From a virus (taxonomy: Duplodnaviria; Caudoviricetes): DNA of 52,326 nucleotides. The position numbers were made by a program, and so were the translations under genes. Under the pieces are notes generated by a model. That model had not been told where the DNA came from and did not search any database. It saw only the letters and a program-made list of their open reading frames with translations. The stretch spans positions 1 through 52,326 of IMG/VR virus record IMGVR_UViG_3300029317_000050, one strand, 5' to 3'. Within the stretch, counting starts at the first letter, position 1. Each line of letters starts with the position of its first letter. Below, one piece after another: positions 1,293-16,312 of the stretch.

Positions 1293-2297
1293 TCAGGGTT
1301 GCCCGTAGCTAATCGAAGTATTGGTGATTCTTTTGTTGTGGATCGCCAGCGTTACGCGTCGGGCGGTCTCTTCATCAATCTTTGCCCATTCCATAAGACT
1401 TTCTTTAACTGCTGCTAGAGTCGCTGTATGAGGGTTGAGCGATGGGGTGGCAGGCTGAGCTGAAGGCGTTACAGCTGGTTGTTGCGTAGGTTCTTGCTGA
1501 GGTTGTGGTTCAGGCTTCGTTTCGTTCTCTGCTTTCTTGCGATCAAACGTACTATTGGTTAGAAGGGCGATTTCGTGACATTCTTCAATTTCATTCCTTA
1601 GCTTTAACTCTGCAGCTTTAGCATCGGCTACGCGCTTGGCTTCGGTACGCTTACGGTCAAATTCATTGTTCAGAAATAAGCCTATTTCATGGTCGGCGTC
1701 ACGAATGATTCTTTGCTTTTCTGTCTCAACTTGTTTCAGTGCTTTTTCCGTGGCTTCTTCGGCTGCTTGCTCTGCAATCTGCCTTTCATGAGCCATACGG
1801 TCCGATTCAGCCAACGCTGCAGCGTCTGCCTTGTCTCGATCAAGCTTTTCATTCATTAGAAGTGCTAGCTCGTGACATTTATCGACTTCAATTTTCAGGG
1901 CTTCGGCTGCAACTCTTTCCTCTTCCTCTTTCTTGATCCTCGCCTGGTCTGCTTCCCAGTCGGTGAGGGGTTTGCGGGTTAAGTCTCGAAGAGCATCCAT
2001 TTCTCTTGAAAATTCACGAAGCTCATCTTCTATTATTTTAGGAGTAGCTTTGATTACCTTGAGATATTCGCGACCTGGCTTTGTTACTGCAGTCTTTGAT
2101 GAAGACACTGCACTTGCTAAGCTCTTGATGCGAGCTCTACCTTTTGTGGTTGTCAGGTCTGGAACTTCGCTGGCCTTTTCGCGAGCGTCATCGATAAATA
2201 CCTGTAATCCACCTTTGCAATAAAGGGTAGGGTAGTTTTCTTTTTTGATATCAGGGAGCGGGGCTATTACTTGCTTTTCTTCTGCTGTGCTTGGCAT
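1293..2297 (-). CDS. Coiled-coil phage early protein (type often auto-annotated TolA-like)
   Basis: PDLTTTKGRARIKSLA...RKPLTDWE segment and long Ala/Glu/Lys helices; start moved to the ATG at 2297 (AAGG RBS). Confidence 0.75.
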   Translation of the reverse strand: MPSTAEEKQVIAPLPDIKKENYPTLYCKGGLQVFIDDAREKASEVPDLTTTKGRARIKSLASAVSSSKTAVTKPGREYLKVIKATPKIIEDELREFSREMDALRDLTRKPLTDWEADQARIKKEEEERVAAEALKIEVDKCHELALLMNEKLDRDKADAAALAESDRMAHERQIAEQAAEEATEKALKQVETEKQRIIRDADHEIGLFLNNEFDRKRTEAKRVADAKAAELKLRNEIEECHEIALLTNSTFDRKKAENETKPEPQPQQEPTQQPAVTPSAQPATPSLNPHTATLAAVKESLMEWAKIDEETARRVTLAIHNKRITNTSISYGQP

Positions 2298-2373
2298 TGT
2301 GATGTACCTTTTGATTGTTGTTACCGACAAAGCCCCCAATCAAGGAGGCTTTTGAGCGAGGTGGAGCTAGGTG

Positions 2374-2754
2374 TTACTGGGCTGCAGCTGGTTCAAGTGG
2401 TGCACTGGCAAGATATAAAGAAACCTCTTCCGGATCAAAGCACTTGTTGACAGTAAGCATTGTTTGCATTGGAAGGCTTTCGCTTGTAGTCGAGGCGCAA
2501 ACGGTATTAAGAGTTCCAAAGCTATTGGCTTCTTTTTTGATGAAATCCAAAGCCTTCTCGGAAGACATGCCGATTTCAATGTGGCGTGATGTTTCGTTGG
2601 TGCGCTCAATGACAAGCTCTTTCTTGGGTTGTGGTTTTGCTACTGGCATTTTTGTTCCTTTATCGTTTGGTTGCATTGATACTGCTGCGATTGAAATCAA
2701 TGATAAAATCAGCATTATTGCTGCGTTGGTATTTCTCATTGTTTGGGTTTGCAT
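2374..2754 (-). CDS. Hypothetical exported or membrane-anchored protein
   Basis: N-terminal hydrophobic stretch AAIMLILSLISIAAV. Confidence 0.6.
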   Translation of the reverse strand: MQTQTMRNTNAAIMLILSLISIAAVSMQPNDKGTKMPVAKPQPKKELVIERTNETSRHIEIGMSSEKALDFIKKEANSFGTLNTVCASTTSESLPMQTMLTVNKCFDPEEVSLYLASAPLEPAAAQ

Positions 2755-2789
2755 TGGTGTTACGTCCGTTTAACTGTTCTAGCTCGCCT

Positions 2790-3332
2790 CTAAAAGGGTA
2801 TGTCGTCCTCGAATTCAGAGCTTGCTGGTGATGGCGCGCCTTGCTGCTGAGGTGCTTGGCTATATTGCGGTTGCTGTGATTGTTGTGGTCTTTGCTGTTG
2901 ACTGGCCTGCTGCTGAGGTGCTTGTGCGTAACCTTGGCTTGGAGCTTGTGATTGCTGATGACCTCCGCTCTGCTGCCCGCCATTGCCCTCGCTGCGTGTA
3001 TCAAGCATCTGCATTTCACTAGCAACAATCTCGGTGGTGTATCGATCATTACCACTTTGATCTTGCCACTTGTTAGTTCTCAATGATCCTTCAACGTAAA
3101 TCTTTGAGCCTTTGCGAAGGTACTCGCCAGCAATCTCAGCTAGACGATTGAAGAAAACTACGCGGTGCCACTCGGTTCGCTCTTGGTTCTGGCCTGATTG
3201 CTTGTCCTGCCACGTCTCGCTTGTTGCAATGCTAACGTTGGTTACTGCATTACCATTGGGCATGTAACGTGTTTCTGGATCCTGCCCTAGATTACCGAGG
3301 ACAATAACTTTGTTAATACCTTTCCTAGCCAT
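2790..3332 (-). CDS. ssb: Single-stranded DNA-binding protein
   Basis: [26 protein letters not shown]-rich linker and C-terminal FEDDIPF. Confidence 0.97.
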
Positions 3333-3350
3333 GATTTGTTCCATAATTAT

Positions 3351-3378
3351 TAAAAAGAAGCGGGGTTCTACGCCCGCT
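3351..3378 (-). terminator. Putative intrinsic terminator after recT
   Basis: AGCGGG/CCCGCT stem followed by TCTTTTT on the minus strand. Confidence 0.5.
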
Positions 3379-3404
3379 ATAGGTCACAACGAGTCGGCAC
3401 GTTG

Positions 3405-4328
3405 TTAGGCTGCTTCTGAATTCTGATCTTGTGCTACCGCTTCGCCCTCGATGGGCTCAAAGCCAGCAAGAAGGGTTTTGTACTTTCCTTCGAGGTGACC
3501 TTTGTACTCAACTAAGTTGTTGTCCTTGGTCCAAGTCCATGCAATACCGAACTCAACTTTTAGCTCTTCTTTGGTTTTTGCCTCAGTCATGCACTTGGCG
3601 TGATGCATTAGCTTATCTTCGTCGTTTTCATGTACTACCTCCGATTGCATGAGATCGCCAAGAGGGGAGCTACTTACAGTTGCTTCGCTGGTGATGTCTT
3701 TTTCGCTAGGAGGGGAGTCTCGCAATTCATCTTCGGTATAAACCCCCATCATGATTTCAGGGCAGTGAAGACGAGCCCATCGCTTTACCGCAAGGTATGC
3801 AAGCTGCTGCTTGGGGTCTGAAGCCCATAATGTTGAGTTACGTGTTTGTGCTTGCGTTAGGTATAGGTCCAGCTGCGTGGGCTCCGAATCTCCTTTGAAG
3901 GTAGCGTAAACAGATACCCCCAAACCTTCTTCGTCAACAGGTTTCCAATCTGGAACTTTGTATTGCTTTTTTGTTGTCTGATTTGTTTTGGTGGCGAACT
4001 TACCAATAACTTTGTGCCAGTCTCCAAACCAGTTGTACTTGATGCGACTGGTAATAGGTGCGTTAGTGGTGATCACCGCATTAACTAGCTGTGCCTCATA
4101 GCCGAGCGTGCCGCTAACAACGTGAGTCTTTTGTCCTACAAGGTATGGGTTCATTCCCCACATAGAAGCTTGCATTACAAGAGCCAGACAGTCGCCAGGG
4201 TTGCGGTGAAAGTGAACGGGTAGCATAGCCTTGCTTGTGGACATGTATTCAGCAACTTTTATGTACTGAGTAAGCGTCTCGTTGTTTTGCAGCATGCTTT
4301 CATTGGTTACTGTTAATTCCGAGCTCAT
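3405..4328 (-). CDS. recT: RecT-family single-strand annealing protein
   Basis: NPGDCLALVMQASMWGMNPY, GYEAQLVNAVI, LWASDPKQQLAYLAVKRWARLHCPE; adjacent to an exonuclease. Confidence 0.9.
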   Translation of the reverse strand: MSSELTVTNESMLQNNETLTQYIKVAEYMSTSKAMLPVHFHRNPGDCLALVMQASMWGMNPYLVGQKTHVVSGTLGYEAQLVNAVITTNAPITSRIKYNWFGDWHKVIGKFATKTNQTTKKQYKVPDWKPVDEEGLGVSVYATFKGDSEPTQLDLYLTQAQTRNSTLWASDPKQQLAYLAVKRWARLHCPEIMMGVYTEDELRDSPPSEKDITSEATVSSSPLGDLMQSEVVHENDEDKLMHHAKCMTEAKTKEELKVEFGIAWTWTKDNNLVEYKGHLEGKYKTLLAGFEPIEGEAVAQDQNSEAA

Positions 4329-5170
4329 TAGCATTCACCTTCTTCAAGAGCGGTTAATTTTTTAATATTCCAGGGAGCCAAGCCCATTGCTATGGATCCA
4401 ACTTGATAGCCAGGCCAGTAATCCATATCGATTGATTCAGATAAGTCAGCAAGCCCCTTTTCAACGGTTAGTTGAGCAAGACGTTGAGCCATTTGGTCAA
4501 ACGTGCAGGGACCAATGGTGCAGTAAGGCTGCTCTGTTTCAGTGACTACGAATGCGAACTCTCTTTTGCCAGTGACGTATCGATAAAGGATGTCTTGTAT
4601 GTGATATCCAAGGTCCACAGCTTTCTTTGTAAAATGTTCCGGCTCCGCTGATGCTGCAGTTTTTAGGTCAATGGCAAGATCAGGAAAGTCGTAATCAACA
4701 CGCGCCTTCAATACGATGTTCGTGTAAATCTCGTGGCGCTTCCAGTAGGAAACTTCAGGAGTGCCGCCAGTGAAGAATTTGGAGTGAGACGCCATAACGG
4801 CTTTCGCCATATTCTTTGCGTCATCCATATTTTCAGCTTTAAGAATTGTTTTATCTGAATTCTCTTCCTTGTACTTTTTCCATGCGTTGCTATTGCGAGA
4901 CTTTATTTCTTCTGGCTGAGTCACAAACTCACCATCGAATAACTCAGGTGTTAGCACTAGGCAGTGAACGGTTTTACCAAGGTCAAAACAATCTTTTTGC
5001 TCGAATGGCTTGCCGTATTTGAACTTAGCTGGATTGGCTATGTACTTCTTTAGTGAAGTTGACCCAAAGCCATGAGACTTGTGATACATCTCTTCATTAA
5101 AACCTTCAATGCGAAGCGTTTCACCGGGCCGCAGTGCCGCGATTTTTGTATTTATTTGTTCAAGATCCAT
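4328..5170 (-). CDS. RecE/exonuclease VIII-like PD-(D/E)XK nuclease (DUF3799-type)
   Basis: YH...GSTSLK, GKTVHCLVLTPE, KARVD, DLKT and YHIQ motifs; next to recT. Confidence 0.88.
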   Translation of the reverse strand: MDLEQINTKIAALRPGETLRIEGFNEEMYHKSHGFGSTSLKKYIANPAKFKYGKPFEQKDCFDLGKTVHCLVLTPELFDGEFVTQPEEIKSRNSNAWKKYKEENSDKTILKAENMDDAKNMAKAVMASHSKFFTGGTPEVSYWKRHEIYTNIVLKARVDYDFPDLAIDLKTAASAEPEHFTKKAVDLGYHIQDILYRYVTGKREFAFVVTETEQPYCTIGPCTFDQMAQRLAQLTVEKGLADLSESIDMDYWPGYQVGSIAMGLAPWNIKKLTALEEGEC

Positions 5171-5325
5171 TATGCTCTCACGATAGGTAGTGGAAATTTA
5201 ATTTTTTTGCCGTAGGCTTTGTGCATGTTTGCCAAATCTAATCGGCGGTAGAAGTTCTGCTTTCGTTGTCGATTTGAGTTGATGCGGTCGTTACCCTCAA
5301 CAGGCTGATTGAATATTTGTGCCAT
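5170..5325 (-). CDS. Small basic hypothetical protein (51 aa)
   Basis: ATG at 5325 with GAGG RBS; stop abuts the exonuclease start. Confidence 0.55.
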   Translation of the reverse strand: MAQIFNQPVEGNDRINSNRQRKQNFYRRLDLANMHKAYGKKIKFPLPIVRA

Positions 5326-5683
5326 TGATTGCCTCTGCTTCAGTTGCGTTAAATCGTTGTAGTTGGTATGCGAAGTAGTCTGAAATGCTTTCGCCTGTAG
5401 CGCTTTGTTCTTCGATAATTTCAGATATCTGTGGCTTGTGCTCTTCGCGCAATAGGTGTGCAACCTGCTGAGCATAAGCTCGCGCATTCTTTGGAATGTG
5501 TAACGGCAACAATGAGAGGCTGAAAAGCTTTTCATCATGAGCTAGCGTTTCATCAATTCCACTACCGTTCTCTACAGCCAATTGCTCGCGGTACATGGAT
5601 ACCATTACATCTTGCTGCAGTGTCGCTGAGTTGCCCCATGACTTGATTGCATTTTCCAGAATGTAGGTGCGTAGGTTGTTCAT
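5297..5683 (-). CDS. First gene of the early-left operon, hypothetical
   Basis: 128-aa ORF just downstream of the operator cluster. Confidence 0.7.
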   Translation of the reverse strand: MNNLRTYILENAIKSWGNSATLQQDVMVSMYREQLAVENGSGIDETLAHDEKLFSLSLLPLHIPKNARAYAQQVAHLLREEHKPQISEIIEEQSATGESISDYFAYQLQRFNATEAEAINGTNIQSAC

Positions 5684-5709
5684 TTATTTTATCTTTCCCT
5701 TTGTTGCTG

Positions 5710-5770
5710 TAGCAAGATATTGCTATATATTACATGCGCTGCAAGATAATGCAATAGCAATATATTGCTA
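5710..5770. promoter_or_regulatory. OL-like operator cluster (3 sites) with putative PL
   Basis: TAGCAAGATATTGCTA 5710-5725, CTGCAAGATAATGCAA 5739-5754, perfect palindrome TAGCAATATATTGCTA 5755-5770; same motif as in the cI-cro gap. Confidence 0.8.
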
Positions 5771-5859
5771 TTTAAAATTTATATTTCAGAATGCAGCTAC
5801 TCGCATTAGGCTGATGATTTCTGTATCGTCTCAACCTCTTTTTTCTAGGAAGGTAAAAA

Positions 5860-7941
5860 ATGAAAAGATTTACTTTAGTATGGGCTCTAATTATGAGCTT
5901 GAGTGTGGGGGAGTCTGTTGCTACGGATTTCGATAGTTTTGATTTTTTAGAAACGAATGTGTCTTCGGTTGCTAAAATGAGCCAGCCAATTAAGAAAGCA
6001 CCTGGTGCTGTAACAGTTATTACAGAAAAGCAAATCAAGCAGCTAGGTATTAAGTCTATAGCGGAGGCCATGAGATTGGTTCCAGGCTTCCATGTGGATT
6101 TTTCTAGCCCATTTACCTATGTAAATAGAGGGGCGAACTTCCCAACGGCTCGACGCCTACAAGTATTGATTGACGGAGTTAGCGAGGTTAATCCACTGGT
6201 AGGTGTAATTAACTGGGAGAACTTCCCGGTAGCTTTGGAGCGTATAGAGTCGATAGAAGTTGTTAGGTCACAATCCTCCGCAGCTCATGGAGCAAATGCT
6301 TTTTTCGGGACGATAAATATTGTTACAAAACACCCTGATGATATAAAAGGTGCTGAGTTACGAGTCGCGGGATCAAAAAAGGAGCGCACAGTTTATGGAG
6401 GCGGGGGCTTTGTAGCAGGGAATACCACCATAGCCATGGACTACAAGCATCATAATGCAAACAGATTCGATGAGTTTGCCGATGGGCGTCCTAATAGGCA
6501 CGATGACATGAGAGTAAAAAAAATCAATGTCACGACTCATACTAAAATTGACTCCGACCAGTCGATAATATTAAAGCTTGGGGCTGTTAGGTCAGATATG
6601 GAGCACCAACTATCTCAAACTGAGCCATTCGGGACTGAGCTGCCCATTGTAGAGCTTGATTCAAATGTTGCATCGTTGCGTTTTTTGAAGAGCACAAAGA
6701 ATCACGAGTTTGAGGCAAAAGTCTATTTCTATGAAAAAGACTGGCAGCACGAGTGGGACTTCTGCGCGCCTAAGTTGTTTTATGTTCCAGGGTTGGGTGA
6801 TCTCTATCGAGATAATAGTGCGCTTGTATTGGCAGCGTTAGGAGGCGCCGCTTTGCCTTCGGCGACAACAGACGAAATGATACGATTGGGAGGGATTTTT
6901 ACAGAAATAGCGGGGGACCCTACGTCCGGAGATACTGTGTGTGGAGAAATTAACGTTGATTATCGTTACAAAACGTATGCCGGGTCTATAAGTGATGTGT
7001 GGAGTATAACCGAAAAATTAAGGGCGTCGTCTAGCTTTCAATTGGATTACCGATGGATGGAAAGCGAAACGTATAACGATGGCGTTACTTCAATTCAAAA
7101 ATCAAAATTCTTTACTAATGTCGAGTACTTGCCCTTTGACAACCTAACGTTGAATGTGGGCTTTATGGCTGAATCGCTAGGTTATGACCTAGGAAACCCC
7201 GAGATCTCCCCTAGAATTGGCGCTAATCTTCATATAAATGATAGCAATACGCTAAAGCTTGTCTATTCAATGGGCAGCCGTTTAATTGATGGGATCGAGA
7301 TAATCGAGAGCAACCAAGTTCCCGTTCATTTCAATTTTGAAGTTTATGGTTCAACAAGACAATCACCATTTTTGGGATATTTTCCACTTTATAACAACAA
7401 AGACCACGTAGAAAGAATCGAGTCTACAGAGGTTATCCATTACGTAAAGGCGGGTGATTGGATGCTTGAAACGCGGGTCTTTCTTGAAGAATTAGACAAC
7501 ATCCTTAACTATCAAGATCAGTCAGGTTCGAGTATTACGGCGCTGGATAGAAAAGGTGGAGAGTTTACGGTGCGTTATAAAGTATCTGATATTGATGTGC
7601 GCTTTGCGGGCCATTATTTAGATAGCGATTCGAAAGACAAAATATTTTTCGATGATTATCATGCCTATGGTGGCAGTGCTTACGTAGCGAAAACGTGGGG
7701 CGATATAACCGGTAGCCTGTCATATTACGGTACTAGCGCTATAGATTATTCTTCATATGACCGCACGGACGCTCGAATTGCAAAGGTGTTCACACTAGAA
7801 ACGGCACAAGTTGAGTTGTCTGGGATGCTTTCTAGGCATAGAGAAGTGTATGTTAGGGCTCTTGATTATGGCGGTTTGATTGATGGAGGAAAGCGAGATA
7901 GCGTGAATGAAGTAACTCTAGAGGTTCGATTCACTCTTTGA
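5860..7941 (+). CDS. TonB-dependent outer-membrane receptor
   Basis: Signal peptide; plug motifs APGAVTVIT...SIAEAMRLVPG, LIDG, IESIEVVRS...HGANAFFGTINIVTK; SPRIGAN; C-terminal beta strand. Confidence 0.92.
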   Translation: MKRFTLVWALIMSLSVGESVATDFDSFDFLETNVSSVAKMSQPIKKAPGAVTVITEKQIKQLGIKSIAEAMRLVPGFHVDFSSPFTYVNRGANFPTARRLQVLIDGVSEVNPLVGVINWENFPVALERIESIEVVRSQSSAAHGANAFFGTINIVTKHPDDIKGAELRVAGSKKERTVYGGGGFVAGNTTIAMDYKHHNANRFDEFADGRPNRHDDMRVKKINVTTHTKIDSDQSIILKLGAVRSDMEHQLSQTEPFGTELPIVELDSNVASLRFLKSTKNHEFEAKVYFYEKDWQHEWDFCAPKLFYVPGLGDLYRDNSALVLAALGGAALPSATTDEMIRLGGIFTEIAGDPTSGDTVCGEINVDYRYKTYAGSISDVWSITEKLRASSSFQLDYRWMESETYNDGVTSIQKSKFFTNVEYLPFDNLTLNVGFMAESLGYDLGNPEISPRIGANLHINDSNTLKLVYSMGSRLIDGIEIIESNQVPVHFNFEVYGSTRQSPFLGYFPLYNNKDHVERIESTEVIHYVKAGDWMLETRVFLEELDNILNYQDQSGSSITALDRKGGEFTVRYKVSDIDVRFAGHYLDSDSKDKIFFDDYHAYGGSAYVAKTWGDITGSLSYYGTSAIDYSSYDRTDARIAKVFTLETAQVELSGMLSRHREVYVRALDYGGLIDGGKRDSVNEVTLEVRFTL

Positions 7942-7960
7942 TTAAAGTGTTGAGGGCTGC

Positions 7961-8893
7961 TTAATGCAGCCCTTTCTTTATTATGCCTTGCTCAACGAGC
8001 TTGCGGTTATTAGGTATGTCGTGAGCTGGTACGATGTGTATATTCGGGAATTCATTTTTTATACGAATTAGTGATTTGATTTGTGAATTTACGGCTTCGC
8101 TGTCTTCTCCAAGGATTATATGACTTGAAATTCTTGGTTTTCCTACTTCAAGCGTAATATTTGCCATTGAATACGCAATATCTCCAACTAGTAATATTTC
8201 AGTTCCGTTTTTTAACTTGATATACATTCCCTGGTTACCTGGGGTATGCCCTGGCACATTGAATAAAACCACACCAGGGGATATTTTATAAAGCCCCTTG
8301 TTGTCTATCACGTTCACTTTATCAAGCTGAGAAAGGCTAATAAACCCGTCTTTCATTGATGCCATCATATCGCTATTTCTTTGTGCTTTCGATACATAAA
8401 TAACATGCTTTATCTTGTCGAAAAGTTCAGTGTTAAATGCTCCGGCAAAGTGGTCCCAGTGCTCGTGAGTGAAATAGATTTGATGAGCCTTTTCTAGTGA
8501 TTTTTGCATTTTATTGTAGGCTTCTTCGTCGTAGTCATAAGCCCAAATCATAGTGTCGTGAAGCGCTTTGCTATGGACCGGATCAATGATTGAATAGCCA
8601 ACATCATATACTAGTTGATAGGTGACAAATTCGAATAGAGTTTCGGTTGTATGCCCCTTTGCCAGGCGAAACCATGACGGGAATTCACCGCGTGCAATTG
8701 TTATACTGCGCAGCTCGTTTGGTAGCTCCTCCGGTGTGTCGTCCACCATTATTTGCATGCGCTTAATGATTGTAGGCGTTAAATAGGGTGACTCGGTAAC
8801 GCTGTTTAAAGGGTCGCTATACCATAGGTAATAATAGGTTGATAGTGATACGGTGAACAGTATTGTGATGATTGCTAAAAGCTTACGGTTCAA
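7961..8893 (-). CDS. Exported or membrane-anchored metallo-beta-lactamase-fold hydrolase (lactonase-like)
   Basis: THEHWDH, PGHTPG, GDIAY and PAHD metal-binding motifs; N-terminal TM/signal. Confidence 0.88.
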   Translation of the reverse strand: MNRKLLAIITILFTVSLSTYYYLWYSDPLNSVTESPYLTPTIIKRMQIMVDDTPEELPNELRSITIARGEFPSWFRLAKGHTTETLFEFVTYQLVYDVGYSIIDPVHSKALHDTMIWAYDYDEEAYNKMQKSLEKAHQIYFTHEHWDHFAGAFNTELFDKIKHVIYVSKAQRNSDMMASMKDGFISLSQLDKVNVIDNKGLYKISPGVVLFNVPGHTPGNQGMYIKLKNGTEILLVGDIAYSMANITLEVGKPRISSHIILGEDSEAVNSQIKSLIRIKNEFPNIHIVPAHDIPNNRKLVEQGIIKKGLH

Positions 8894-10346
8894 AATTGTC
8901 TCCTGATAAGGTAACGATATTGGTATTAATGGCTCGAGAGGTGATGATAGGTGCTTGTTTATCTGCTGTCATTGTCTTTATGGGAATTGATATATTAATG
9001 GTTGTACCAACATTTTCGGTTGATTCTATATCTATTTCGCCACGAAGAAGCCCTACAAATTTCTTGACCATAGATAGTCCCATCCCTAATTTTGCCGCCT
9101 GAGAGTCGTCAAAAATATGTTTGTGTTCGTTTTCTCTGAACCCTGCGCCTGTATCATTGAGGCAGAAAGAGAGCCGGGTTCTCGTTGCTTTCCAGCTTAA
9201 GGCTATAGTTCCTGCTGTTGTGTTGTCAAAAGAATTGTCGAGTACACATGAAAGCACCTTGTAGAGCTTTTCCTCGTCTGTGATTGCTAGTAAGTCGCCA
9301 AGGCTGCTGTTTTCATCCGCCGAAACTTCAAATCTCAAGCGTGGAGTGTGCTTTTGGCTATAGATCGCATCAATTTTATTAATCAATTCGTTGGGATAAA
9401 ACGCATTTTCTTGGTATACGTGGTGGTCTTGTTCCAGCCCTTCAAAATCTATCAATTGATCTAATTGGGCGTTGATTGTTTTAGCCTCATTTTCAACGAG
9501 AGAAATCATGCCTTCAATTTCGGGGGGTATTTCATACTCCCTTAACTGGGGTTTTATGATATCGAGAAGCCCTGTTATAGTTTTAGTTCTGCTCTTTAAG
9601 TCCGTGGAAACGGAGTCCATAAGGCGTTTTTTCTGAGCTTGTAATAGCTCTTTGTCTGCGGTCTGCTTCGAGTGAATAGACCAAAGGCGGAAAAGCTCTT
9701 GTTCTATTTTATCGAATTCATGGATACCAATTCCATCAATGGGTTCGGGTTGAGCGCCGCTTGTTATACTAGTCAGTGTTTTCTCAGTTTTTCGAATAAA
9801 CTGGGCTGTTTTTCGATTTAGCCAAACAATGGCAATCAAAACTAGAAGGATTGCTATTGCAAATATAGCAATATGTGAACCTATGGCGTTGTTGATTTTC
9901 TCTTGAGTGTAGTGGTTAGATAACGTTAAATTTATGCTTCCCAATATGACCTCTGAATCGTCGTCCAAATCAAATATGTTTGGCCTTCGATCTTTTAGCA
10001 AGAACTCTGGTTGTGGCGAGATTCCGTGATTTGTAGGTATAGTTTTGTCATATATTGATGCAACAACGTCCTGCTCTGAGTCTTTTATCTCAATATGGTA
10101 AATCAAATTGTTGTTTTCTATTACTTCTGTTGCCATTTGTCGGATTGTGGCGCGATGACCCGTAGCCAACGCGAACATAAAGGACCTTTCAAGACCACTA
10201 ACCAATTGAACGGTCTGCCGCTCAAAATCAGCGTATGCAGCCTCTGAAAATTGGCGGTATGAGTAATATTGCGATGACGCCAATATCGTTGTTATCGATA
10301 CAAATAACAATATAGATAGGGAGCGCAGAGTATTAATTTTGATCAT
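8883..10346 (-). CDS. Membrane sensor histidine-kinase-like protein lacking the phospho-acceptor His
   Basis: Two TM helices around a periplasmic domain; HATPase boxes LDN, DTGAG, GMGL, GTT; H-box reads SVSTDLKS. Confidence 0.85.
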   Translation of the reverse strand: MIKINTLRSLSILLFVSITTILASSQYYSYRQFSEAAYADFERQTVQLVSGLERSFMFALATGHRATIRQMATEVIENNNLIYHIEIKDSEQDVVASIYDKTIPTNHGISPQPEFLLKDRRPNIFDLDDDSEVILGSINLTLSNHYTQEKINNAIGSHIAIFAIAILLVLIAIVWLNRKTAQFIRKTEKTLTSITSGAQPEPIDGIGIHEFDKIEQELFRLWSIHSKQTADKELLQAQKKRLMDSVSTDLKSRTKTITGLLDIIKPQLREYEIPPEIEGMISLVENEAKTINAQLDQLIDFEGLEQDHHVYQENAFYPNELINKIDAIYSQKHTPRLRFEVSADENSSLGDLLAITDEEKLYKVLSCVLDNSFDNTTAGTIALSWKATRTRLSFCLNDTGAGFRENEHKHIFDDSQAAKLGMGLSMVKKFVGLLRGEIDIESTENVGTTINISIPIKTMTADKQAPIITSRAINTNIVTLSGDNFEP

Positions 10347-11172
10347 CTTCGCCCCCTTTATTCTTAATTTCTAAGTTCATAAAGCTTGCGAGTCTGTTGT
10401 TTACCATTGTTTCGGTATTTGCAAAGTTGTGCTTTTTAACTGCGCTAATGTCTTTGTTTATTAGCGAGTTGGTAATATCGACCGTTTTTGAAATAATTGA
10501 ATTATGATTGGCTACTACGGTAAGAACTGCCCCTTTGGTTTGTAAAGCAGGGTTTGAACTGATTGCTGCAACCTTGTTCCTAAAAAGGGATTCCAATACA
10601 TATAGTATGTTTTTTCTATTAAATATCTCTCGGTTCTCTGTGATGTAGAGAGCATCAAGGGGTCCAGTGTTAAAAATGAACCTAAAAGTTTTAAATATAT
10701 CGTCGGAAACAAGCTTTTGTTCGGTAAGCTTTATATCGGTGGCTCTAAGGCGCGTTAGGTAAGGTTCATTAGTGTCTGCAAAAATATAACCTATCCGACT
10801 GCTCGGGAACTTCTTTTCAATTTCTAAGGCTAACTCATTGGGGTTAGGGTCTGAATATACAGCGTATTTTTCGCTTTGATTTTTCTGTGTATTGAATGAG
10901 TTGTAGCTTACAAATGAGGCAACGTGCGGCTTGGTGCTGTTTTCAAGCTCGTTGAATGCTTTGTTGCCAAGAGTTATAACAACTTTATATGTGCTTTCAT
11001 CGGGGGGAGATGTGACAATTTCACTGCTGTCTATTTGCTTTGATAGGTTTTCTGCAATTTGCAATGCAGATGAGTTGTCTTGGGTAAAGATTACAACGTC
11101 AGCTCCCCAAGAGGCTTGGGAAAAAAGAACAAACGAAAGGAAAAAAAGTACTAATTTCCGAGACATGCCCAT
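10333..11172 (-). CDS. Periplasmic ABC-substrate-binding-like (YfiR-like) protein
   Basis: Signal peptide ending ASWG-A; VVITLGNKAF and LESLFRNKVAAISSNPALQTKGA segments; overlaps the kinase start. Confidence 0.65.
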   Translation of the reverse strand: MGMSRKLVLFFLSFVLFSQASWGADVVIFTQDNSSALQIAENLSKQIDSSEIVTSPPDESTYKVVITLGNKAFNELENSTKPHVASFVSYNSFNTQKNQSEKYAVYSDPNPNELALEIEKKFPSSRIGYIFADTNEPYLTRLRATDIKLTEQKLVSDDIFKTFRFIFNTGPLDALYITENREIFNRKNILYVLESLFRNKVAAISSNPALQTKGAVLTVVANHNSIISKTVDITNSLINKDISAVKKHNFANTETMVNNRLASFMNLEIKNKGGEDDQN

Positions 11173-11184
11173 GTGTTTCGCATG

Positions 11185-11730
11185 TTATAAGGTGCCTAGT
11201 TTTGCTAATTGCAATAGTGCCTTCATGGCTTCTTTCATTTCCGGGGACTCAATGGCAAATTTCTTTTCGATATGTATTTTAATTATTTCCGAAAAAGCGG
11301 CTTCAAGCTGTCTTTTGTTTAGTTCAGAGAATGCATCGATACCAATATCATTACCCGCTTTTGATATCGCTATATAAATTTTACCTTCAGTTGCTGCGTC
11401 TATTTGCTTCTTTTCAATTGTGTTGTCATTTGGCATTGGCAAACTGTCACCATTGAGCAAGTACGATTCAATATCATATTTTGAAACAGTACTCCCTTTT
11501 TTTCGGTGAGCTTCCTTGTATATGCTGTCGAGAAGTAGGGCAAAGCTATCTGGCTTTGGGGGTTTGTCATTCTCTAAGCTTTTCCGGATACCTGGTGACG
11601 TAAGCCCAGACCACGTGGCGAGTATGGGCATTCTGCCGCGCTCCTTTAGCCCGAGTTTATCTAGAAGGGCATGGAGGCGCCCAGTGAACCCGGCTGTACA
11701 GATTACAGTTGAGAGTTTAACAGCGCTCAT
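11185..11730 (-). CDS. XRE/phage-repressor-like HTH transcription factor
   Basis: FTGRLHALLDKLGLKERGRMPILATWSGLTSPGIRKSLENDKPP resembles phage repressor N-terminal HTH domains. Confidence 0.65.
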   Translation of the reverse strand: MSAVKLSTVICTAGFTGRLHALLDKLGLKERGRMPILATWSGLTSPGIRKSLENDKPPKPDSFALLLDSIYKEAHRKKGSTVSKYDIESYLLNGDSLPMPNDNTIEKKQIDAATEGKIYIAISKAGNDIGIDAFSELNKRQLEAAFSEIIKIHIEKKFAIESPEMKEAMKALLQLAKLGTL

Positions 11731-11809
11731 TGTAACGGGTCCCTAAGTAAACTTGGCATTGGCGTTCGGAATTTGTGAGGTCTTACAGAATAATAACGAA
11801 TTATGCACC

Positions 11810-11880
11810 AAATAGAAACATTTTAGGAAATTATTAGAATTTATTTAGAAACCAAATAGAAACTAAATAGAAACTAATAG
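11810..11880 (+). repeat. Array of 6-7 degenerate 11-bp direct repeats (consensus about AAATAGAAACT)
   Basis: TAG cores at 11813, 11824, 11835, 11846, 11857, 11868 (exact 11-bp phase), then 11878. Confidence 0.8.
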
Positions 11881-11909
11881 TTGATTTCACTAAATTGTCT
11901 GGCTATATT
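11881..11909 (+). promoter_or_regulatory. Putative sigma70 promoter for the small ORF
   Basis: TTGATT-N17-TATATT directly after the repeat array. Confidence 0.6.
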
Positions 11910-11954
11910 CGGATCCAGGGGGCAGTGACAACAACAGAACATAAGGAATTTTGA

Positions 11955-12137
11955 GTGGATTTTAATGAAGATGCTTACAAAGAAGTAGAAAGAGCTATTG
12001 CGCTATCAGAGGTAATGCAATTATTAGATCCAGCTGAAATGTCAAAGTTCATGCTGAGCGGTTATGGGGAGGCTATTGAGGCAACGCTGCGCTCAGCGCT
12101 TAACAATATGTTAAACGGTGGCCTTGGCAACTCTTAG
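11955..12137 (+). CDS. Small acidic helical protein (60 aa), candidate antirepressor
   Basis: AAGGA RBS, GTG start, own promoter; convergent with and overlapping the repressor 3' end. Confidence 0.55.
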   Translation: MDFNEDAYKEVERAIALSEVMQLLDPAEMSKFMLSGYGEAIEATLRSALNNMLNGGLGNS

Positions 12138-12665
12138 CATCATTTTTTGTTTTTTGGGTGAGCACTTGTGAAAAAGAGCAATAAACTCTTCTAAATCATC
12201 ATTCTTGGCTGGTGCTTTAGAAGGCACCTCCCCTTTGGGCCGACTGGAAGCCTTTGTTTTTTCGAGCGGGTGACTCACTAGTTTAGATAATATGCCCTCA
12301 CGCTGTTCGGTAGGTGCTTTTATAAAGTTGCTTACAAGAGTATCGAGCTCGTCACTTTCCAAAAAGTCCGGGTGCAAGTTTGGGATCAGCAATTGCCAGA
12401 CAGGCATATCAAAATAATGAGCAACACTTTCTATGTTACTTAGAGCAGGATTCGGCCTGTCTTCAAGGTTGCACCGTCTCATGTTGTTTAAGGTTCTTTG
12501 AGATGTGCCAATTTTTCTGGCGATCTGACCCTCGGTAGCCACCGGGCCGCCGCGCGTTGATTTTGAAATCAAAAAATCCAGATGCGTCGCGAGCGTTTCT
12601 TTTGCCGACTTCTTTCTTCTTTTACGGGCCATTTCTAATTCGCTTTCATCTATGTGGTCGTTCAT
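12111..12665 (-). CDS. CI-like repressor (XRE HTH, no S24 peptidase domain)
   Basis: TEGQIARKIGTSQRTLNNM...NPALSNIESVAHYFDMPVWQLL; divergent from a cro-like gene across operators; alternative start at 12632. Confidence 0.85.
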   Translation of the reverse strand: MNDHIDESELEMARKRRKKSAKETLATHLDFLISKSTRGGPVATEGQIARKIGTSQRTLNNMRRCNLEDRPNPALSNIESVAHYFDMPVWQLLIPNLHPDFLESDELDTLVSNFIKAPTEQREGILSKLVSHPLEKTKASSRPKGEVPSKAPAKNDDLEEFIALFHKCSPKKQKMMLRVAKATV

Positions 12666-12694
12666 TTTTAATGCCCCATTATAATATGCTGCTA

Positions 12695-12798
12695 TAGCAA
12701 TATGTTGCTTAATATATAATCTAATTATAGCAAAATATTGCTAATTTATAAACTTGCTGATAGCAACATCTTGCGATAGCAATATAATGCTATATACT
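12695..12798. promoter_or_regulatory. OR-like operator cluster (4 sites) with putative PR
   Basis: TAGCAATATGTTGCTT 12695, TAGCAAAATATTGCTA 12728, TAGCAACATCTTGCGA 12761, TAGCAATATAATGCTA 12777; TTGCGA-N16-TATACT. Confidence 0.85.
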
Positions 12799-12804
12799 GG
12801 CAAA

Positions 12805-13065
12805 ATGAATCTATTAAACGAAACAAATCGCCTTCTAAGTAAATACAAATACTCCGACTGCAAGCGCATATCGATCGCAAGCGATGTCAATTTTCATTGG
12901 CTTGCAACTTTCCGCAAAGGGGGCATAGCCGAACCCGGAGTGCAAAAAGTTCAAAAGCTTCATGACGCTCTTTTGTTAATGGAACCTAAGCCAAGCCCCG
13001 CCAACGATTCAAGAATACCTCTCTCCACAGAAAGCGCACCACTTAACGTAAGGGAAGGAAAATGA
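12805..13065 (+). CDS. Cro-like HTH protein
   Basis: RISIASDVNFHWLATFRKGGIAEPGVQKVQKL; first rightward gene after the operators. Confidence 0.75.
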   Translation: MNLLNETNRLLSKYKYSDCKRISIASDVNFHWLATFRKGGIAEPGVQKVQKLHDALLLMEPKPSPANDSRIPLSTESAPLNVREGK

Positions 13066-13502
13066 ACGCACTAATAAAAGAGCTAATTGCTTGTGGTGAT
13101 TATGCTGCAGCGCATGAAAAAGCTGTCGAGGAGTACCGAAAAATCAAGCACGCAACTATTGCTGGTTGGTTTGAAGAGCATGGCTTGCCAGCGAGAAGCA
13201 TCAACCATGAGATTGCACGAATCTCCTCGTGCCTGAATCCCAATAAGAAAGAATATTTCAAACCTATCGAATGGCAGATCATTCAAAAGGAATCAGGCAA
13301 TTACACGCTGTATGAGGCTGAGTCTCAATTCTATGGCTTTGCTCGCCCTGCAGAGCTAGAGGCGCGCGAACAGCAGGAAGCTCTATTGAAAAGAAAGGAA
13401 GCGCTTGAGGCTGAACTGAACATGACTAATGCAATGTTGGGCGGGAAAATTCAACCTACGCAATCCTTGCACCTTTATTCAACCAAAAACAAACACGCAT
13501 AA
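13062..13502 (+). CDS. CII-like phage regulatory protein
   Basis: Position after cro; ISSCLNPNKKEYFKP segment resembles phage CII-family regulators. Confidence 0.5.
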   Translation: MNALIKELIACGDYAAAHEKAVEEYRKIKHATIAGWFEEHGLPARSINHEIARISSCLNPNKKEYFKPIEWQIIQKESGNYTLYEAESQFYGFARPAELEAREQQEALLKRKEALEAELNMTNAMLGGKIQPTQSLHLYSTKNKHA

Positions 13503-13540
13503 AAAAGCCCGCGAACTTTATCAGAGAGAGCGGGCTTTTT
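13501..13540 (+). terminator. Intrinsic terminator (possibly bidirectional)
   Basis: AAAAAAGCCCGC...GCGGGCTTTTT. Confidence 0.7.
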
Positions 13541-13567
13541 CATTTGTACATCACGGGGATTATATTA

Positions 13568-14500
13568 ATGGCAAGATCGAGAAATATCAAGCATACATTT
13601 TTTAAAGATGATGAGTTGGCTGAATTACCTTTCGAGAATCGTCTTTATTTTATCGGGCTTTGGACGCAGGCAGATTGTAAAGGGCGTATCGAGTACCGAC
13701 CAAAACGGATAAAGGCAGAGATATTCCCGTATGACGACGGAATTAATATTGATGAGCTTACAGTTAATCTGTCCAAGTACCGATTTATTCGGATTTATTC
13801 GGTACAAGGACGACGTTACATTGAAATAGCTAATTTCCTCAAACATCAGAACCCACACAAGAATGAGAGAGATAAAGGTTCGGCTATCCCACCTCCAGAA
13901 GAGGGTGTTGCTGTAGACCTTACAAATAAAGGGCTGCAGAAAAGTACCGAATCAATCGGTACCGGAACCGATTTAATCGGTAGTGCTCCTGCTGATTCCT
14001 GTTTCCTGAATCCTGAATCCTGTTCCCTGAATCCTGATTCGTCGGGACAAACTCAAGAACAAAATAAATCGGTCGAGAGTTTTCAAAGCGAAGCGCCGTC
14101 AGTGGAGCCGCCAGAAATTCAACTAGATATTCTCACAGGGGATCCTGAAGTACTTTCTGAAACTCAGCTGACCGACTTAGCTTGCATCAAAGTTATTGAC
14201 CACCTCAACGAAAAAGCTGGTAAGAATTTCACATACGCTGACTCGCACAAAGAACACATCAAGGCCAGGCTCAATGAAGGCCACACCTTGGAGAAGGTCC
14301 TTCAAGTAATTGACCTCAAGGTTGATGATTGGCTGAATGACAAGGAGTACAACAGGTTCCTGCAACCGGGAACCCTGTTTAACGGCAAGAAATTTAATAA
14401 CTACGTTGGCCAAGTAGGTTGTAAGCCAGCACCGAAGAAAACTGAATTCCCTGTTCACAATCAAGCGAAGTCTGCTAGAGCGGGGTTTGCTAATGCTTAA
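13568..14500 (+). CDS. Phage replication initiator
   Basis: MARSRNIKHTFF...RLYFIGLWTQADCKGR N-terminus; C-terminal VIDHLNEKAGKNF...FLQPGTLFNGKKFNNY domain; followed by a DnaC-like gene. Confidence 0.85.
   Translation: MARSRNIKHTFFKDDELAELPFENRLYFIGLWTQADCKGRIEYRPKRIKAEIFPYDDGINIDELTVNLSKYRFIRIYSVQGRRYIEIANFLKHQNPHKNERDKGSAIPPPEEGVAVDLTNKGLQKSTESIGTGTDLIGSAPADSCFLNPESCSLNPDSSGQTQEQNKSVESFQSEAPSVEPPEIQLDILTGDPEVLSETQLTDLACIKVIDHLNEKAGKNFTYADSHKEHIKARLNEGHTLEKVLQVIDLKVDDWLNDKEYNRFLQPGTLFNGKKFNNYVGQVGCKPAPKKTEFPVHNQAKSARAGFANA
13944..14039. repeat. Putative origin iterons inside the initiator gene
   Basis: Two 19-bp near-palindromes GTACCGAATCAATCGGTAC (13944) and GAACCGATTTAATCGGTAG (13965), then 7 tandem CCTGWWY-type heptamers (13991-14039). 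Confidence 0.6.
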
Positions 14501-15305
14501 GCCCGTCAAGGTCATCGATGCTTATTGCGAAAAGCACGACAAAAAATACAAAGCGAATGTTTATCACGTTTTTAATCACGAGAGCGTGCAGCCTTGCCCT
14601 CGTTGCCATATCGAGAATACCCGAGCAATGGCCGTTGCATCACAAGTGGAACAGGCTCGCATCGTAATTAGCGCCAGAGAAAAAAGGGAACGCGACGAAT
14701 GGCAAGCCAAGCAGCTTAAGACCAGCATCCCTGAGTTATATCAAACGCGTTTCTTTTCCAACTATCGGGTTGAATCCAAGGCTCAGCAGTCAGCTCTTGA
14801 TATTTGCAGAGAGTTTGCTGATAACTTTTCTGCTTACAGGCGATCTGGCGGGACTTTGGTTCTTGCTGGTACCCCTGGCACAGGCAAAACGCACCTCTCG
14901 TGCTCCATAGCCAATCAAATAATTCAGCAAGACTATACCGCAGTGTTTATTACCGTTGTCGAGATGGTTAGAAAAATACATAGCACTTACGGAACTAGCG
15001 AAGGTGAGCAAGAAGTTATTGATAGGTTTTCTAATGTTGACTTTTTAATCCTTGATGAGGTTGGCAAACAATCTGGATCCCTTTCTGAGCAAAACCTCGT
15101 TTCAGAAGTGATTGCCAATCGCGTAAACCATCATCGCCCGAATGTTCTATTGTCGAATTTAGAGCTTGAAAAAATGAAGGAGACTCTTGGAGAGCGAGCC
15201 TGGGACAGGTTGACGGAAGGCAGATCAACACTTGTTGATTTTAATTGGGAGTCATACCGAAGCCGAGTTAGTGGCGATAAGAAACTACAGCAGAGGCCAG
15301 CATGA
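14493..15305 (+). CDS. DnaC/IstB-like AAA+ ATPase (helicase loader)
   Basis: Walker A GTPGTGKT, Walker B LILDEVG, LLSNL, GERAWDRL; N-terminal CEKH/CPRC. Confidence 0.92.
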   Translation: MLKPVKVIDAYCEKHDKKYKANVYHVFNHESVQPCPRCHIENTRAMAVASQVEQARIVISAREKRERDEWQAKQLKTSIPELYQTRFFSNYRVESKAQQSALDICREFADNFSAYRRSGGTLVLAGTPGTGKTHLSCSIANQIIQQDYTAVFITVVEMVRKIHSTYGTSEGEQEVIDRFSNVDFLILDEVGKQSGSLSEQNLVSEVIANRVNHHRPNVLLSNLELEKMKETLGERAWDRLTEGRSTLVDFNWESYRSRVSGDKKLQQRPA

Positions 15306-15646
15306 ATACTAAAAAACCAACACTCTTTAGCTCCAGTGAGCAGCATCGCCGCGAATGCGAAGTGCGTTACTACATGAAAAAAATGGGATCCAACGCAATC
15401 GTTGCATGGGCATTAAAAAAGGGTGATGCCTACTGCAGCACTCTTGCAAGTGAATTACTGAAAATTACCAACCTGACAGAACTGGAACGTCGCGTCAGAG
15501 CATTAAAAAGCACGGATCATCGGCTGAAATTCAATTCTTGGTTAGAGGTGGCGAAAGTTGAGCAAGCAAGGCAGAGAGAAGATAAGCGACTTCGTGGTGG
15601 ACATGGCATTGCAAATCTACCTGCAGCGCGGGGTTCGTTGGCGTGA
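15302..15646 (+). CDS. Phage hypothetical protein
   Basis: ATGA overlap with the upstream gene; SEQHRRECEVRY motif. Confidence 0.65.
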   Translation: MNTKKPTLFSSSEQHRRECEVRYYMKKMGSNAIVAWALKKGDAYCSTLASELLKITNLTELERRVRALKSTDHRLKFNSWLEVAKVEQARQREDKRLRGGHGIANLPAARGSLA

Positions 15647-15938
15647 TGTTGTTGAAGCGTTGGAAGAGCGTGGGTTTATATATTCGCGTAGAGGTCTGGT
15701 TAATGCGATTAATGAGCGCGGCTTGCTTCATGTTCCTGACGGTCATGATCGTTGCGGCCATTGCAAATCTGTTTTTCCTGTTGAGTGCGAAAGCAGCAAG
15801 AAGCGTGGCGCTTTTTGCTTATGTCCAGAATGCAAAGCAGAGGGCCAGGTACTCCCGCAGCATTCAAAGAAGTCACTCGCACAAGGTCAACGCGGACCAA
15901 AACCAAAGTGGTCAAGACATGGGAGCTTTTACGCATGA
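15558..15938 (+). CDS. Putative HTH plus C4 zinc-finger protein
   Basis: GAGGTG RBS before TTG; CGHC...CPEC; stop overlaps the next ATG. Confidence 0.55.
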   Translation: MSKQGREKISDFVVDMALQIYLQRGVRWRDVVEALEERGFIYSRRGLVNAINERGLLHVPDGHDRCGHCKSVFPVECESSKKRGAFCLCPECKAEGQVLPQHSKKSLAQGQRGPKPKWSRHGSFYA

Positions 15939-16312
15939 ATAAAGTTCACTTATCTCAATGGTGGGATTTAACTGACGAAGAGAAGCAAGACATCGTTAGC
16001 GATGTAGTGCGACCTCACGAAGGGGTTTGGTATGCAGGGTTTTCATCCATGCTCAAAGCAAACCTGCATTTGTTGGATAACTACCTCAAGAAAACTGAAG
16101 AAGAGCGCTTGAGTGGTGTCGCTTGTGTTGGGTCCAAGTACATCGTTGAAGAAATGCGACGTGAAGGGCTCAAAGATACTCGCGACAAGCGATTGTTCAA
16201 TATCAACAACAACTACACAGCCGATATGGCACGCCTTGCAATGCTGTTATTTCCGGTGGAGCTCAAGGGATTCTTTAGGGTGCGGACGTTGAAGAGAGGG
16301 TTTCGAGCGTGA
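15935..16312 (+). CDS. Phage hypothetical protein
   Basis: GGAG RBS, ATGA coupling; FNINNNYTADMARL...FFRVR motif. Confidence 0.7.
   Translation: MNKVHLSQWWDLTDEEKQDIVSDVVRPHEGVWYAGFSSMLKANLHLLDNYLKKTEEERLSGVACVGSKYIVEEMRREGLKDTRDKRLFNINNNYTADMARLAMLLFPVELKGFFRVRTLKRGFRA

Follow-up and report, generated by a model that had tools for sequence, protein, structure and literature searches.

What is a set of genes with the makings of an import, sensing and hydrolysis pathway doing between the operators and the repressor gene of a prophage? The question is raised by IMG/VR record IMGVR_UViG_3300029317_000050, of which all 52,326 nucleotides were analysed (the window), and which annotation of its open reading frames (ORFs) and PHROG matches identifies as a lambda-like (lambdoid) prophage. 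Here a TonB-dependent receptor (TBDR) gene faces a minus-strand operon encoding a helix-turn-helix (HTH) protein, a periplasmic binding protein (PBP), a membrane sensor related to histidine kinases (HK), and a hydrolase of the metallo-beta-lactamase (MBL) fold. The best reading of the sequence is that this five-gene cassette belongs to an undescribed module family travelling on mobile elements, and we put at roughly one half the probability that it serves as a portable “moron”, an accessory cassette through which the lysogen would profit from sensing, importing, and hydrolysing some small molecule of external origin. The involvement of all five genes with a single small molecule, as the original prediction proposed, is something we infer.

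The cassette and its counterpart in a second phage

The cassette and the hairpin within it are as follows:

5860-7941, plus strand: TBDR, 693 aa, with a signal peptide and plug domain PF07715
7952-7974: GC-rich hairpin (9-bp stem with 6 GC pairs, then a T-run) between the convergent TBDR and MBL genes, likely a two-way terminator
7961-8893, minus strand: exported or membrane-anchored MBL-fold hydrolase (PF00753), 310 aa, with a single N-terminal hydrophobic 19-mer (residues 5-23)
8883-10346, minus strand: predicted inner-membrane pseudokinase sensor, 487 aa (TM1, Cache-like domain, TM2 at 158-176, HAMP-like region, His-less DHp, ATP-binding domain)
10333-11172, minus strand: type-I PBP by fold match, 279 aa, with a Sec signal peptide
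11185-11730, minus strand: 181-aa cytoplasmic protein, the first operon gene, in which an XRE-type HTH fold at the N-terminus is followed by a helical C-terminal domain

All six ORFs described by the original prediction (these five and a 60-aa ORF considered below) are in the ORF list where it placed them. Its tightly packed operon is also borne out, with the genes for the 181-aa protein, PBP, sensor, and MBL hydrolase following one another in that order on the minus strand, translationally coupled, with a gap of 12 nt between the HTH and PBP genes and overlaps of 14 nt (PBP/HK) and 11 nt (HK/MBL). The proposed envelope-spanning layout, from the outer membrane through the periplasm and inner membrane to a cytoplasmic HTH protein, holds by gene content.

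Of four seawater-metagenome runs compared over positions 2000-16000 of the window, X1 may be its source and X2 belongs to the same study, so that neither is independent, whereas X3 is drawn from another study. An independent metagenome contig from X3 (record 15, 18,809 nt) is collinear with the window, and compares with it as follows:

3091-3333 (single-stranded DNA-binding protein, SSB): 43 differences
3334-5925 (early-left genes, OL/PL, 5' end of the TBDR gene): 3,198 unrelated letters instead
5926-11735 (cassette homology block): 92.5% nucleotide identity, with 435 differences and 0 gaps in 5,810 nt
11736-13552 (60-aa ORF, repressor, operators, cro-like and cII-like ORFs): 1,245 unrelated letters instead
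13553-13882 (replication gene): 57 differences

The joints in X3 run from 3333 to 5926 and from 11735 to 13553, with the SSB and replication genes lying beyond the replaced flanks, and the shared block ends inside the TBDR signal peptide on one side and 5 nt upstream of the HTH start codon on the other. This collinearity points to a related phage that carries the same cassette at the same place, beside cI/cro and early-left segments that cannot be aligned with those of the window. As the ends at 5926 and 11735 exclude phage regulatory DNA, a portable moron fits at least as well as a decision circuit.

All five X3 proteins are intact and in frame, three being equal in length to those of the window, with the TBDR two residues longer and the PBP two residues shorter at the N-terminus. 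Identities are 95.8% (TBDR), 96.5% (MBL), 92.8% (HK), 93.1% (PBP), and 90.1% (HTH); the X3 TBDR has 13 differences past residue 24, and among the nucleotide differences listed for its gene 34 of 37 fall at third codon positions. The 435 nucleotide and 96 amino-acid differences correspond to an omega (dN/dS) of about 0.07-0.085 overall, a rough value obtained from total nucleotide and protein differences rather than codon by codon (40 of 739 differences being listed), and, assuming uniform dS, to about 0.03 for the TBDR, about 0.1 for the sensor, and about 0.17 for the HTH protein. Five intact proteins and an omega of roughly 0.08 indicate that the cassette is selected and not decaying; a dN/dS near 1, named by the original prediction as the mark of decay, is far from what is found.

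The same comparison bears on the suggestion that the locus is a decaying remnant of an operon captured from an integrative and conjugative element (ICE), in which the truncated, His-less sensor is a non-working hitch-hiker. Compared with the ICE versions described below, the sensor has indeed lost the acceptor His and has kept almost nothing of the receiver. However, this form is common to both phages (the X3 sensor likewise has Thr and no receiver), the N, G1, and G2 ATP-binding motifs are retained, the sensor omega is low if dS is uniform (roughly 0.1), and nucleotide divergence of about 7.5% has been reached with 0 indels or stops in 5.8 kb, all of which makes a decaying remnant very improbable.

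The predicted import, sensing and hydrolysis steps

The plug domain of the TBDR is matched by PF07715 at residues 44-151 (E 4.8e-15), with no Pfam match to the 22-strand beta-barrel PF00593 at E<=0.1, and solved receptors align over the plug only. The barrel appears too divergent for the Pfam model; the length of the protein is typical, and it aligns over its full length at 45% identity with the ICE-borne TBDR of genome G008, and with two others at E 1e-45 and 3e-44.

The periplasmic binding-like protein of the original prediction is supported by its predicted structure and its Sec signal. The AlphaFold model (pLDDT 79.7) has the two-lobe alpha/beta fold of type-I binding proteins, with Foldseek matches to the PF04392-type structures 6hni, 3lft, and 3lkv (E 2.6e-9 to 2.4e-8) and TM scores of 0.59-0.65 to 6hni, 6hnj, 3lft, and 3lkv. 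No Pfam or NCBIfam profile matches at E<=0.1, PF04392 included. A word-indexed search of 5.8 billion clustered proteins returned 3 relatives, no second copy was found in the phage's own host genome, and the cassette contains no gene for an ABC permease or ATPase. The solved PF04392 structures 6hni, 3lft, and 3lkv are listed in Table 1 of PMC10443332 as binding Trp, Tyr or Phe.

The sensor retains a HATPase_c domain (PF02518, E 2.2e-15) with the Asn, DTGAG, and GMGL of the N, G1, and G2 boxes, and has no HisKA match in Pfam. Its H-box reads VSTDLKSR, compared with VSHEMRQP or ISHELRQP in relatives, with Thr replacing the phospho-acceptor His, and no His occurs in residues 230-300. The C-terminus lies about 30 residues past the ATP-binding domain, so that the receiver present in ICE relatives (PF00072) is missing; the tail aligns with the first strand of the relatives' receiver, the only vestige of it left, which suggests that the phage form descended from a hybrid kinase. 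With Thr in place of His and the receiver lost, the protein is, judging from its sequence, a pseudokinase incapable of phosphorylation, which could not act as a histidine kinase. The kinase-like membrane sensor originally proposed therefore stands in its fold and its HATPase_c domain, but not in an acceptor His or a receiver. The periplasmic part resembles sCache_4/LapD-type domains followed by HAMP, a likeness that serves as a lead only; LuxQ and TorS are the best NCBIfam matches of the catalytic half, whilst the solved relatives found with the sensor profile include DivL and RetS, through the general kinase fold and not specifically. The closest kinase paralogue in the host's own genome is 28% identical. 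Separately, phrog_857 (unknown function, 468 positions) matches sensor residues 10-460 at E 1e-21, and this near-full-length match indicates that unannotated membrane sensor-kinase-like proteins are already present in phage protein collections.

The model of the 181-aa protein (pLDDT 92.4) aligns over residues of about 10-96 to XRE/Cro-C1 HTH folds at Z 5-6.8, with C.EcoT38IS (Z 6.8), SaPI Stl (Z 6.5), P22 c2 (Z 5.9), and the 434 repressor (Z 5.5) among its matches; Z values of 5-7 are weak, and the best Foldseek E value is 0.035. It has no Pfam match, with HTH_17 matched by one of 50 family members, and structure comparison gave no clear known relative for its helical C-terminal domain. The family is without a name and has 172 representatives at E<=1e-3. 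No operator motif common to the regions upstream of the HTH gene was seen across 8 loci, and a complex prediction of sensor residues 181-487 with the 181-aa protein scored 0.00, which counts neither way on binding.

The hydrolase scores 24.7 bits against PF00753 (cutoff 22.7) and carries the metal-ligand motifs HEHWDH (143-148), PGH (214-216), DIAY (238-241), and HD (291-292), aligned to those of AiiA; together with the N-terminal hydrophobic segment, these agree with the exported MBL hydrolase of the original prediction, as far as sequence goes. Its closest solved relatives are six AiiA-type acyl-homoserine lactone (AHL) lactonase sequences (E 2.1e-8 to 4e-7), its best NCBIfam match is AiiA (NF045699, E 3.2e-11), and the 228 relatives found by sequence are “~300-aa MBL fold” proteins of a generic kind. 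A weak match to hydroxyacylglutathione hydrolase (E 1.8e-5) was also seen. Across the family the enzyme beside the module varies, from MBL in the window to P450 (G008), a phytochelatin-synthase-like protein (G328), a GGCT-like protein (G301), a SEC-C-motif protein (G074), or none. Three of these alternatives lie next to the receptor gene:

L015, 12742-14070: cytochrome P450 gene (E 1.7e-82)
L051, 4358-5047: phytochelatin-synthase-like gene (E 1.4e-38)
L052, 6649-7281: AIG2/gamma-glutamylcyclotransferase-like (GGCT-like) gene (E 8.1e-14)

Two of the three, the phytochelatin-synthase-like and AIG2/GGCT-like genes, belong to families acting on gamma-glutamyl peptides, and with the weak hydroxyacylglutathione hydrolase match this is a possible hint of ligands that are thiols or gamma-glutamyl compounds.

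The similarity to AiiA raises the possibility that the cassette detects and quenches a lactone signal, such as a long-chain AHL, and so rewires quorum sensing in the lysogen. The six AiiA-type relatives, with HxHxDH, His, and DxxY motifs aligned, and the NCBIfam match speak for this, as does the binding of amino acids by three solved PF04392 proteins (PMC10443332), homoserine lactones being amino-acid derivatives. However, the hydrolase scores far under the AiiA family cutoff, its relatives are generic, and related modules carry quite different enzymes. Furthermore, AHLs are not known to require a TonB-dependent receptor, and we consider signal interference improbable.

In the accessory cassette that we favour, the TBDR would carry the ligand across the outer membrane, and the orphan binding protein would capture it and dock on the sensor at its Cache-like domain in the periplasm, as in LuxP-LuxQ, TorT-TorS, and XylFII-LytS. 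Since the sensor appears unable to phosphorylate, a conformational or contact signal is proposed, which would most likely be relayed by holding or releasing the XRE-type 181-aa regulator or, alternatively, by binding a host kinase in the manner of RetS; the regulator would in turn set cassette transcription. The periplasm-facing AiiA-like metallo-hydrolase would open a lactone or ester bond of the ligand, either freeing a nutrient, following the logic of PfeA/PfeS/PfeE, or terminating the signal.

Relatives on conjugative elements and the possible use of the signal

Relatives at 20-45% identity comprise an HTH protein, a binding protein, a hybrid kinase, and often a receptor. The binding protein was found in 3 of 28 genomes of the taxonomic family and 14 of 401 genomes of the order (E<=1e-8), and the 181-aa family likewise in 14 of 401 (E<=1e-6), whilst at the level of the class the HTH profile was matched in 13 of 400, over most of its length only in G643 and G425 (one genus), where the HTH gene is divergent from a kinase-family ORF. 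The binding-protein and/or sensor gene adjoins the HTH gene in 10 of the 14 order-level hits (G000, G008, G020, G074, G234, G316, G328, G301, G072, and G155, with G268 ambiguous and 3 short-contig hits left out). A TBDR lies beside the module in G008 (45% identical), G072, G155, G328, and G301, and a partial one in G268. The acceptor His is kept in four lineages (G008, G020, the G074 group, and G155) and absent in four (the window/X3 phage pair, G072, G328, and G301), with the sensors of G328 and G301 additionally without a recognisable ATP-binding domain. A near-identical host operon captured only by this phage, which the original prediction had accepted as a refutation, was found in none of the searches of the phage's own host genome, the family or the order.

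The Pfam neighbours of the module at these loci are as follows:

G008: AcaB, DUF2857, ParA, TraI_2
G020: TraG_N, IS transposase
G074: TraI_2, immediately upstream
G301: coupling protein, integrase, ParA
G072: topoisomerase, TraI_2_C-like ORF
G155: ParB_C only, weak

Conjugation, partition or integration genes thus adjoin 6 of the 8 bacterial loci scanned by Pfam; the other two, G328 and G268, lie on contigs of 10.6 kb and 12 kb, and Pfam gave no mobile-element neighbour for them. Taken with the two prophages, this places most known instances of the module on mobile elements. G234 and G316, which lie outside the eight scanned loci, have the ORF order of G074 over about 20 kb. At L048, L049, and L050 (G316, G074, and G234, from three taxonomic families) a stretch of about 20 kb that contains a TraI_2 relaxase and the HTH/binding-protein/hybrid-kinase triad has the same ORF order and ORF lengths, and from its sequence this locus looks like one recently spread conjugative element.

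Amongst phages the module is scarce. Positions 5600-12800 had no blastn match in phages, no IMG/VR relative was confirmed with a binding-protein alignment or a TBDR, and tblastn against 50,697 phage records gave nothing for the PBP or HTH protein, and for the TBDR nothing beyond the plug domain; matches in PHROGs were confined to a TBDR family at plug level and to some kinase-like families. A tblastn search of 72,556 plasmids gave no match for the HTH protein, a scan of public genome contigs returned only two loci already known, and a scan of public metagenome contigs gave one 6-kb contig with a G020-like triad. No paper pairing PF04392 with “TonB-dependent” was found in the literature, nor any comparable prophage module in titles and abstracts. 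The description of the genes as unusual phage cargo is supported by these searches. Their description as a prophage-encoded module fares less simply, as a second phage with a non-alignable cI/cro segment has the cassette, but its relatives are not phage-specific and are mostly on conjugative elements.

This distribution is also the main attraction of another explanation, in which the cassette is a life-cycle sensor that reports an extracellular cue to its carrier and, via the XRE-type protein, biases phage induction or lysogeny, or the excision or transfer of an ICE. The family is found mostly on mobile elements (2 prophages, and hallmark genes at 6 of 8 bacterial loci), with the module beside the repressor gene here, at the matching place in the second phage, and beside relaxase or partition genes in ICEs. 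The structural neighbours of the HTH protein include SaPI Stl, P22 c2, 434 cI, TP901-1 CI, and ImmR (Z 4.8-6.5), the pairing of HTH protein and sensor is the most conserved link of the family, and the loss of the kinase His in four lineages suggests that phosphotransfer is not the conserved output. However, the boundaries of the shared block, one within the TBDR signal peptide and the other 5 nt before the HTH start codon, imply that the cassette takes no regulatory DNA of the phage with it when it moves, and that it functions next to two cI/cro segments that cannot be aligned. In addition, the sole repeat motif nearby is not above chance elsewhere in the phage, XRE folds are found everywhere, Z values of 5-7 are weak, and cargo genes likewise cluster in hot spots by core genes. 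We therefore regard a life-cycle sensor as unlikely, although deserving of weight. The broader proposition that the HTH protein, binding protein, and pseudo- or hybrid kinase (with or without a TBDR) form a mobile-element-specific sensory system, with which prophages and ICEs would read a chemical cue from outside the cell and relay it without phosphotransfer from the kinase-like membrane sensor to an XRE-type regulator that tunes induction or transfer of the element itself, seems to us quite unlikely; if true, it would provide a receptor-mediated small-molecule counterpart of arbitrium or VqmA-Qtip, common to phages and conjugative elements.

The accessory cassette remains our preferred reading, at about even odds, and several points weigh against it. 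The near-exclusive link with mobile elements is unexplained by simple nutritional cargo. The hydrolase reaches 42.9 bits against an AiiA equivalog cutoff of 375, and since the accessory enzyme differs among relatives, the “destruction” step of the original prediction is not conserved in the family. Upstream of the TBDR no site resembling a Fur box was found, the best candidate matching at 12 of 19 positions, which is ordinary for the window and leaves a link with iron without support. The output of a sensor without His or receiver is a proposed one, as are the ligand, binding, and expression of the cassette, and the estimate of omega is the rough one described above.

The immunity region and known systems

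The position of the cassette is defined by the following features:

5710-5770: left operator pair, 2 palindrome copies, overlapping a leftward PL-like promoter (5715-5686, minus strand)
12695-12792: right operator cluster, 4 palindrome copies, with divergent PRM-like (12752-12724, minus strand) and PR-like (12771-12798, plus strand) promoters
12111-12665, minus strand: putative prophage repressor, 184 aa, adjoining the right operators, with Cro/C1-type HTH leads from language-model and structure comparison
11955-12137, plus strand: doubtful 60-aa ORF starting at GTG, which converges on the end of the repressor gene and lies outside the cassette
11807-11878: three direct repeats with a AAATAGAAA core, spaced 44 and 11 nt (helical register), upstream of the operon

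A 16-nt palindrome occurs 6 times in the 52 kb, in two clusters only (5710 and 5755; 12695, 12728, 12761, and 12777), compared with a chance expectation of 0.33 matches (shuffle mean), and 6 copies were reached in 0 of 100 shuffles. The clusters overlap promoter-like sites that point left or diverge, and are the left and right operators. Flanked by them, the block lies in the immunity region, as had been predicted, between the left operator/promoter and the repressor gene, with its minus-strand operon on the strand of the repressor as in rexAB. Expression in the lysogen by read-through from PRM is plausible from this arrangement. GC content is 0.39-0.41 across 8-12 kb and about 0.43-0.47 in the flanks, a moron-like composition.

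The identification of the 184-aa ORF as the repressor is a tentative one, made from its position and HTH-like leads, and the protein has no match in Pfam, PHROG or PDB sequences. As it has an HTH-like core and no detected LexA/S24 peptidase domain, prophage induction may work through an antirepressor instead of RecA-stimulated self-cleavage of the repressor. In an exact-sequence cluster look-up the repressor had no second member, and the 60-aa ORF had one other copy only, on a 140,424-nt JGI/IMG contig (presumed to be from the same or a near-identical organism); the absence of X3-contig members indicates that neither gene is part of the cassette. The small ORF noted originally beside the operon is therefore present, but is not conserved along with the cassette. 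The AAATAGAAA-core repeats, which lie outside the block common to both phages, are candidate sites for the regulator; their 10-mer is not enriched across the window (7 matches, 5.65 expected). An imperfect 20-nt inverted repeat at 11829-11882 likewise precedes the operon and falls beyond the limits of the block that the two phages share.

Beyond the operators, positions 2790-5170 encode leftward SSB, a RecT-like annealing protein, and an exonuclease (PHROG E 1.4e-55, 3.1e-91, and 4.8e-51 respectively), and from 12754 rightward there are cro-like and cII-like ORFs, then a replication initiator (E 7.9e-50) and a further ORF. The SSB gene (2934-3400) draws several distinct contigs in runs X1-X3, with a summed depth of about 95-111 compared with 35 elsewhere in X1, which suggests further SSB copies or related phages in those samples. 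In the late region a single ORF of 2,333 aa (43602-50603) presumably encodes a tail fibre or host-specificity protein. Positions 1-290 are N or off-contig; the window starts where a contig ends, and its left side showed neither an integrase nor an attachment site.

Since the position of lambda rexAB is often occupied by defence genes, the cassette could instead serve exclusion or defence, blocking other phages through an altered repertoire of outer-membrane receptors or an abortive response. Position is what speaks for this. However, PADLOC gave no significant match among 7 proteins (a single row at E 0.0084, with no passing stretch), and the domains are typical of uptake and sensing and not of known defence systems, which makes such a function highly improbable.

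The resemblance to the lambda rexAB morons is one of placement, in that both lie between OL/PL and the repressor gene, on the strand of the repressor, with lower GC than the flanks and a closing hairpin, and are exchanged as a block between phages with non-alignable cI/cro segments. Unlike rexAB, to which it has no similarity of content, the cassette has five genes on both strands and is a candidate for, rather than an established case of, expression in the lysogen. The comparison with YfiBNR made by the original prediction holds for the three-compartment triad (outer-membrane, periplasmic, and inner-membrane), but no homology was found, and the cassette is without the OmpA-like lipoprotein, YfiR fold, and GGDEF output. 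RetS is a kinase-like protein that binds another kinase, and like it and DivL the cassette sensor has a kinase-like DHp and ATP-binding fold without canonical phospho-acceptor function, its partner here being only proposed. DivL (PMC4211667) is a histidine-kinase pseudokinase that signals through protein contact.

Sensors stimulated by solute-binding proteins are described as widespread in PMC10443332. As in LuxP-LuxQ, TorT-TorS, and XylFII-LytS, an orphan binding protein is encoded beside a membrane sensor with no ABC transporter, and XylFII is among the fold matches of the cassette protein. In contrast to these systems, the cassette PBP is PF04392-type by fold only, the sensor offers a Cache/LapD-like lead, phosphotransfer is lacking, and the protein contact is putative. 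The nearest working model by analogy may be PfeA/PfeS/PfeE, in which, by the account in PMC8001512, a siderophore imported by a TBDR (PfeA) is sensed in the periplasm (PfeS) and then hydrolysed by a periplasmic esterase (PfeE). The logic of PfeS/PfeR-PfeA-PfeE (and PirS/PirR-PirA) of Pseudomonas aeruginosa is the same, and the ligand need not enter the cytoplasm (PMC8001512). Compared with Pfe/Pir, the cassette has an XRE-fold protein of an unnamed family in place of an OmpR-type response regulator, a His-less sensor, an additional binding protein, no Fur-box-like site found, and a prophage location, and compared with Pfe its hydrolase is of the MBL fold and not an alpha/beta esterase. Each domain type, and the logic of import, periplasmic sensing, and hydrolysis, is known already. 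The combination with the unnamed HTH family, the absence of the His in four lineages, and the near-restriction to prophages and conjugative elements appear to be undescribed.

Whole envelope-spanning sensory pathways are rare in temperate phages, and the one found here is kept under selection and has been exchanged as a block between two phages, with relatives on conjugative elements in several bacterial families. The family defines an unnamed group of 181-aa regulators (172 representatives at the threshold above), and offers a natural series in which the module persists while the sensor kinase is without its acceptor histidine in four lineages. If the cassette is cargo, phages can supply their host with a complete pathway for the import, sensing, and hydrolysis of an outside compound, and if it feeds the decisions of the element itself, it would give mobile DNA a new means of monitoring its surroundings.

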